From contig JADIYY010000002.1 in NCBI GenBank assembly GCA_016705065.1, positions 149,545 to 213,544 on the forward strand: a stretch of DNA of 64,000 nucleotides, in the 5' to 3' direction. Under the pieces are notes generated by a model. The model was not told the DNA's origin and did no database searches. It saw nothing but the letters and a program-made list of their open reading frames with translations. Within the stretch, counting starts at the first letter, position 1. Each line of letters starts with the position of its first letter. Both the position numbers and the translations under genes were made by a program. The DNA comes from Candidatus Aalborgiella aggregata (GTDB lineage: Bacteria; Pseudomonadota; Gammaproteobacteria; Burkholderiales; Burkholderiaceae_C). Below, in pieces: positions 23,262-24,246 of this stretch.

Positions 23262-24246
23262 GAAGAGGCGCGCCGGGGGGGGGGGGGGGGGTTTAGCCCC
23301 CCGCCCGCCCCCCCCCCCCCCCCCCCCCCCTCGAGGTGGGGGGGGGGTTTTTTTCCCAGGAAAATTCACTTTCTTTTCTTACCCCCACAGCCCACCAAAG
23401 AATTAAAACGGCGGCGGGTGGGTTTTTTGGGCCCTTTTGAACGCTAAAAAAAGTACCGCCACCCACCCCGCCCCCCCCCCCGCCGCCGCCGCCTCCCCCC
23501 TTCCCCCCATCCCCAAAAAAAAAACCCCCCCACCCCCCCCCCCCCCCCCCCCCCCCCCCCCCCGCGGGCCCGGGGAGGCCGGGGGGCGGGAAGAGGGGGA
23601 AAAAGAAAGGGCGGGGGGGGTGGGGTGGGTTTTTTTTTCCCCCCCCTGATCCCCCACCCCCCCCCCCCGCCCCCCCCCCCCCCCCCCCAGGCCCCCCGGG
23701 GGGGGGGGGGCCCGGGCCCCCCGGGGCCCCCCGGGGGCGCGGGGGGTGGGGGGGGGGCGGGGGGGACAGACCCGGGGGGGCCCCCCCCGGGGGGGGGGGG
23801 GCCCCGCCGCCGGCGGGGGCCGGCCGCCCGCGGCGGCGGCCGGGGGGGCGGGGGGGGGGGGGGGGGGGGGGGGGGGGGGGGGGGACCCCCGGGGCCCCCC
23901 GGGGCCCCCCCCCCCTCCCTGCCCCCCTTTTGCCGCCCCTCTCGCGGGGGGTGGCCCCCCGCGCGGGCGCCCCCCCGCCCGGCCCCCCGCGGGGCGGGGC
24001 CCTCCCGGGGGGGGCGCCGCGGGGGCCCCCCCGGCCCCCCGGCGCGCCCGCGCCCCCCCGCGGCCCCGGCCCCCCCGCCCCTCCCCCGCCCCCCCCCCCC
24101 TCGGCCCGGCCCCCTCTCCCCGCGCCCGGGCCGCGGCCGCCCGGGCGGGCGCCGCCCCGGGGGGGAGCGGGGGGCCCAAAGCCCGCCACGGAGGGGCCCC
24201 CCCCCCACCCCCCACCGCCGCCCCCCGCCCGGGGGGTGGGGGAGGC
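23262..24246. repeat. Extreme low-complexity C-/G-homopolymer tract; non-coding, probably artefactual
   Basis: C run at 23533-23573 (41 nt) and G run at 23850-23884 (35 nt), with many shorter alternating C and G runs. It fills the divergent smc/dapC spacer up to about 5 nt before the dapC ATG. Confidence 0.9.

Follow-up and report, generated by a model that had tools for sequence, protein, structure and literature searches.

The G/C-run tract that separates smc from dapC in this genome record does not represent native DNA; it is a technical artefact. It very probably arose when consensus calling or polishing failed on mixed-strain pileups in a Nanopore R9.4.1 MAG. We infer this because the edges of the corrupted patch coincide with points at which strain haplotypes diverge, and because hybrid sequence is present.

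The corrupted tract between smc and dapC

The tract at 23262-24246 of the window (the whole 64,000-nucleotide stretch of DNA that was analysed) is 985 bp long and by base count contains 76 A, 467 C, 371 G and 71 T, giving a GC fraction of 0.851 versus ~0.49 for the genome. Runs of four or more identical bases account for 61.7% of its bases, compared to 6.3% in the rest of the window, and 20 homopolymer runs are at least 8 nt long. Runs of C, G, A and T alternate on one strand within the tract, and the patch is internal to a 666-kb contig. These composition and run statistics agree with a preliminary description of the DNA, which had located a C-run/G-run tract here. Its run of 35 G at 23850-23884 is correct, but the 41 C that it placed at 23533-23573 are 31 C at 23533-23563. 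Megablast alignments of independent contigs to the window break at 23252 and restart at 24243, and the corrupted stretch therefore spans 23253-24242. The features of the locus are as follows.

19677-23204, minus strand: smc, intact, left flank (TIGR02168, E=0, aligned 2-1165)
23205-23252: native-looking leader upstream of smc, L013 haplotype (base-by-base match to contigs L013 and L016 until '...gcgcagctt')
23253-23260: 'ggtgcaaa', short-spacer haplotype of the G002 type (G002 'cagcttggtgcaaaaactt' versus L013 'cagcttgtttagc')
23253-24242: corrupted consensus patch, the G/C-run tract (megablast breakpoints; global alignment to the native spacer; A/T overwritten)
23291-23490: recognisable part of the patch (collinear with L013 2012-2212, identity 62-65%)
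~23799-24166, plus strand: projected site of a 128-aa DUF6713 gene, unreadable in the window (global alignment to L013 2520-2906)
23930-24250, plus strand: spurious Pro/Gly/Arg extension of the dapC frame, 107 codons (ORF 23930-25480, 516 aa, TTG start at 23930)
24251-25480, plus strand: dapC, intact, right flank, ATG at 24251 (TIGR03538, 594 bits, profile 1-395)
25568-26392, downstream of dapC: dapD (profile match)

NCBIfam profile matches bear out the earlier naming of smc, dapC and dapD. The suggestion that the dapC ORF is falsely lengthened by 107 codons also holds, as an exact protein look-up in public assemblies found the 409-aa DapC letter-for-letter on four other contigs. By megablast, identity to contig L013 is 98.9% on the smc side, as far as window position 23252, and 99.6% on the dapC side, from 24243 on. 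L013 thus represents a close relative but a different strain, and its spacer stands in here for the probable native form in this strain.

The native sequence at this locus, which the preliminary description had called unknown, is readable from L013 and L016, two short-read metagenome contigs with identical DapC that both carry an ordinary 1,034-bp smc-dapC spacer. The comparison with relatives that it had proposed as a check found ordinary sequence between smc and dapC in L013, L016, L015 and G002. The native spacer consists of ~550 bp of non-coding DNA, then a 128-aa ORF and then 94 bp leading to the dapC ATG. In L013 the ORF encodes a DUF6713 protein (Pfam PF20460, 7e-32). No readable PF20460 gene is found in the window, and whole-genome tblastn with the DUF6713 protein gave a best E of 6.6; the gene is overwritten in this record, not biologically absent. 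The non-coding part includes two tandem copies of a ~70-bp dispersed repeat (L013 2080-2240), further copies of which, 78-83% identical, are located elsewhere in the assembly (C2:631881-631956, C1:631246-631313 and C3:208150-208204; C1, C2 and so on denote its contigs). It also includes a perfect inverted repeat, ATTCCC-N8-GGGAAT ('cattcccgcgcaggtgggaatccag'), at L013 2280-2310. We take this hairpin to resemble the dRS3 elements of Neisseria; no second copy was found in this genome at up to 4 mismatches. A scan of the native spacer for promoters, terminators and Rfam families returned one promoter-like site at chance level, no terminators and no RNA families. The earlier proposal that the promoter region had been overwritten is accordingly correct in part: what was lost is more than a pair of divergent promoters: it is a strain-variable segment of 1 kb, complete with a DUF6713 gene.

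In G002, the genome that came out closest in the search for relatives (its DapC is 96% identical), the spacer measures 205 bp and lacks the DUF6713 gene; contig L015 carries the gene, but with another junction on its 3' side. As the L013/L016, G002 and L015 spacers differ, the smc-dapC locus is strain-variable, and identical DapC is accompanied by at least three spacer haplotypes. A further form is present in L014 (GCA_016720475.1, JADKKN010000006.1), a long-read MAG of the same species, in which the smc-dapC spacer is 204 bp (L014 2797-3000) and contains a C run. This spacer resembles a mosaic in which parts of both haplotypes, among them the start of the DUF6713 gene, have collapsed together. 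Judging from the accession range, L014 probably comes from the same study as the MAG analysed here.

The spacer in the window is 1,046 bp, compared to 1,034 bp in the native form, and the two align globally with a score of 360 (z ~13.5). Mononucleotide shuffles score 70 ± 21 and random segments drawn from the same genome 68 ± 45. Composition does not account for the similarity, because two corrupted tracts that stem from unrelated sequences fail to align when compared as a pair (z=-2.2). In the recognisable part, 23291-23490, local alignments scored 51 and 68 (null ~20 ± 3), and the anchors gaattaaaacg.cggc and tttg.acgct are shared. An independent blastn search of the genome with the native spacer returned C2:172902-172999 (window 23358-23455) at 72% identity with an E of 2e-7. 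Beyond 23500, local alignments of 125-nt blocks to the native spacer did not exceed the null. The best ungapped diagonals, with offsets of -80 to +80 tried, fell between -30 and -11 in all five sub-blocks, and collinearity with L013 becomes visible again in the final 30 nt ahead of dapC. On these alignments the tract is a collinear, position-preserving but degraded version of the native spacer, in which the signal past 23490 is a weak one on the diagonals.

The degradation is directional. In the left part of the tract native C was kept at 47 of 51 positions and native G at 26 of 37; A changed to C or G and T to G or C, with G>A and C>T close to zero. The result is a position-preserving "blur" toward G/C, which is neither filler nor a transition-type mutational signature. 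A deamination or m6A-type cause was rejected, as it predicts A>G and T>C only and A and T each go to both G and C. An origin of the tract as a homopolymer-stretched form of the 205-bp G002 spacer was also considered and was dropped when the 1,034-bp haplotype was found, with which the tract is collinear without run-length compression.

At its left edge the sequence follows the L013 haplotype to 'gcgcagctt', continues with 'ggtgcaaa' and then dissolves. Because this G002-type octamer is fused onto an L013-type leader, two haplotypes are mixed in one consensus. At the right edge the sequence returns as the L013-type 'cccttATG'.

Further patches in the assembly and in a second MAG

A run-density scan (bases in runs of at least 4, 150-bp windows, genome-wide 99.9th percentile 0.43) revealed five large patches and one small one in the assembly (9 contigs, 2,759,370 bp; largest 1,142,453 bp). 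Two of these lie in the window, and the run and composition scan confirmed the previously noted likeness of the 14.4-15.2 kb tract to that at smc-dapC.

C1:450262-450985: patch over a gene for a 221-aa protein
C1:1026480-1027150: patch upstream of the rpsF operon, adjoining the ppsA stop
C1:1029880-1030145: patch between ppsA and ppsR
C2:164.0-164.8k: the 14.4-15.2 kb tract of the window; sister patch between glnD and def at window 14455-15204 (breakpoints 14454 / 15205), a degraded brnT/brnA cassette
C2:172.8-173.8k: the smc-dapC tract
C2:612037-612085: small patch (~50 bp)

The scan also flagged C3:513495-513765, which was rejected as a seventh patch since it is a genuine coding region of Lys/Ala repeats (KKAA). 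The region C3:513495-513900 contains AKKAAPAKKA-type units of a histone H1/AlgP-like, Lys/Ala-rich protein.

The glnD-def patch aligns to the native cassette of L020 with z=14.6, and it contains a run of 105 G. The cassette encodes a type II toxin-antitoxin system, brnT/brnA, which is intact in L020 and L024 (with Pfam matches for BrnT and BrnA on L020) and missing altogether in some strains (L023). For the smc-dapC and glnD-def patches alike, both edges lie about 10 nt or less from points at which haplotypes diverge. Strains also differ between ppsA and ppsR, by a three-gene ABC-transporter cassette, and the patch sequence there is a hybrid of the forms with and without the cassette. The patch at C1:450k is a collinear copy, 67% identical (930 versus 974 bp), of the gene for the 221-aa protein, which has no Pfam match and a native GC of 0.35. 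This gene is intact in six of six other assemblies, which thus show no strain variability at C1:450k. With that exception, the patches at the loci examined lie on strain-variable segments and stop where haplotypes diverge.

A tblastn search of the genome with the 221-aa protein gave no match, and searches with brnT and brnA found nothing at the glnD-def patch and only more distant homologues elsewhere on C1. As tblastn misses them at their loci, DUF6713, the 221-aa gene, brnT and brnA have effectively been erased from the record.

A similar junk sequence is found between glnD and def in JADJZC (Lyne_18-Q3-R50-59_MAXAC.016), a sister MAG of the same study but from another treatment plant, Lynetten. 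Its flanks are 99.5-100% identical to the window over kilobases and its tract is 50-70% identical, with dozens of indels. Because near-identical flanks enclose a tract that diverges with many indels, the tract is not inherited DNA. The junk in the two MAGs is nonetheless similar (z=12), a pattern that would be expected of noise made from the same template.

Origin of the patches

The source MAG, AalE_18-Q3-R2-46_MAXAC.018 (JADIYY), is listed by Singleton et al. 2021 (PMC8012365, Supplementary Data 3). There it serves as the high-quality species representative for cluster 352_1 and is classified as g__Polaromonas by GTDB and as Rhodoferax midas_s_33 by MiDAS (PMC8012365). It has a CheckM strain heterogeneity of 92.86, coverages of 24.7x (Nanopore) and 13.4x (Illumina), and a polymorphic-site rate of 3.1% versus a study mean of 2% (PMC8012365). 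The data consist of PromethION R9.4.1 reads with Guppy 2.2.3 flip-flop basecalling and HiSeq X short reads, and the published pipeline comprised Canu 1.8, Racon with the Nanopore reads, two rounds of medaka 0.6.5 (r941_flip213) and Illumina Racon with --include-unpolished (PMC8012365).

Two other observations concern the quality of this assembly. A sensor kinase at 60505-61936 (minus strand) is split into four ORFs (60505-60981, 60749-61129, 61155-61388 and 61406-61936), a pattern more in keeping with homopolymer indels left over from Nanopore sequencing than with pseudogenisation. The short contigs C9 (9,122 bp, GC 0.678) and C7 (7,886 bp, GC 0.577) have a GC far above the 0.49 of the bin and are probably mis-binned contamination.

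Comparison of the assemblies points indirectly to structural disagreement between reads and draft: at least three spacer haplotypes, patch edges at divergence points and mixed bases at 23253-23260. Given the observed length, collinear homology, directional A/T loss, left-edge haplotype mixture, edge coincidence and pipeline, the responsible polishing step and the state of the read pileup may be envisaged as follows. The population carries a ~1-kb strain-variable segment between smc and dapC, with two repeat copies, a dRS3-like hairpin and the DUF6713 gene, and co-occurring strains have a 205-bp spacer instead. If the draft contig represented the long haplotype, reads of the other haplotype would have been forced through it in Racon and medaka polishing. 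The caller would then have produced output of the right length and wrong composition, in which G/C was largely kept, A/T was replaced by neighbouring G/C and runs were smoothed into homopolymers. The later Illumina Racon round could presumably not mend the patch because short reads would fail to map where 40-60% of the bases are wrong. The strong bias of the errors towards G/C counts against this reading.

A single bad Nanopore read, from stalling or a partial pore block, might alternatively have been bridged by Canu, leaving flip-flop homopolymers in a segment that stayed unpolished. The rise in degradation from left to right with an abrupt stop would suit such a read, as would the retention of unpolished windows, the use of Guppy 2.2.3 flip-flop and a Nanopore depth of only 24.7x for a mixed population. 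Yet a random defect would ignore haplotype divergence points, at which the edges of the smc-dapC and glnD-def patches lie. The haplotype-mixed bases at the left edge also speak against it, as does the similar garbling of glnD-def in JADJZC, an independent MAG from another plant, and we regard this origin as unlikely. We give even less credence to a short-read artefact or gap filling, in which poly-G Illumina reads or a gap-closing tool would have filled an assembly gap. The great length of some G runs (35 nt in this tract, 105 nt at glnD-def) and a pipeline that ends with Illumina polishing are in its favor, but N runs are absent from the assembly, the published pipeline has no gap closer, and filler would keep neither native length nor collinear homology. 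Gap filling is excluded because the tract is 1,046 versus 1,034 bp long and collinear with the native spacer. HiSeq X uses four-colour chemistry, with which poly-G from missing signal is not expected. Poly-G reads are unlikely for this reason and because a single strand carries runs of C, A and T in alternation with those of G. Thus, of the common technical origin that had been proposed for the two tracts in the window, the artefact and the sequence corruption stand and gap filling and poly-G reads do not.

The tract could also be genuine DNA or reflect a genuine property of it, either local A/T-to-G/C hypermutation or dense base modification that systematically wrecked R9.4.1 basecalling; we consider this barely plausible. 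In its favor, the error spectrum is strongly directional, and MAGs from two different plants are corrupted at one and the same accessory cassette. Against it, the flanks of the two MAGs are 99.5-100% identical while their tracts, which have many indels, differ by 30-50%. Ordinary sequence is seen in short-read assemblies of this population, and no deaminase or single-modification signature fits the changes, in which A and T are each replaced by both G and C. In a genome of 49% GC, homopolymers of 35-105 G would be extremely unstable, and we know of no modification restricted to cassettes of 0.3-1 kb. In G002 and G013 the orthologous 20 kb are free of runs of 10 or more, which speaks against a genuine simple-sequence or contingency tract. 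In its most specific form, Rhodoferax/Polaromonas accessory cassettes (the DUF6713 segment, brnTA and the 221-aa gene) would carry dense, cassette-restricted modification or damage, which we think has hardly any chance of being correct. If it were true, R9.4.1 basecalling would fail reproducibly at such cassettes, and the same loci would come out garbled in the MAGs of two plants.

Known artefacts and significance for the record

Our literature search found no description of this exact G/C artefact, only a related Racon/Medaka case. There, the Canu, Racon and Medaka chain produced an aberrant 10-kb insert of A/T homopolymers in the assembly of a fungal isolate (Courtine et al. 2020, GigaScience giaa099, PMC7500977, Fig. 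6). The smc-dapC tract shares with this insert the same chain of tools, the dominance of homopolymers and a probable origin where draft and reads disagree structurally; it is of the right size, has a homopolymer-rich composition and comes from a long-read draft polished with Racon/Medaka. The present case differs in arising in a mixed-strain metagenome bin, in its G/C-dominated runs, in patches of 0.05-1 kb, and in the use of an older medaka, 0.6.5 (r941_flip213), with an extra Illumina Racon round (PMC8012365). Chimeric MAG consensus under strain heterogeneity (PMC8012365) is a second relative: heterogeneity is high, the left edge fuses two haplotypes and the examined patches, C1:450k apart, are on accessory cassettes. 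However, such a consensus is usually a mosaic of real alleles, whereas here it has collapsed into non-biological low-complexity sequence. With the two-colour Illumina poly-G artefact the tract has long G runs in common, but it stems from a four-colour platform, contains runs of all four bases, retains native homology and is internal to its contig. Unlike a scaffold gap or its filler, it is collinear with the native spacer in a genome without N.

The cause appears to be systematic, with the pipeline failing at strain-variable cassettes, because JADJZC is garbled alike at glnD-def and L014 has an abnormal smc-dapC spacer. The finding contains no new biology and its value lies in data quality. 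The affected record is a species-representative genome in an activated-sludge MAG catalogue, and its five large patches and one small patch, together ~3.5 kb, hide at least four real genes: DUF6713, brnT, brnA and the 221-aa ORF. The patches also give rise to long false ORFs rich in Pro/Gly/Arg, the 107-codon extension of DapC among them. Such ORFs can end up in protein databases and lead gene-calling programs and sequence models astray, and a simple homopolymer-density filter can screen for such patches.
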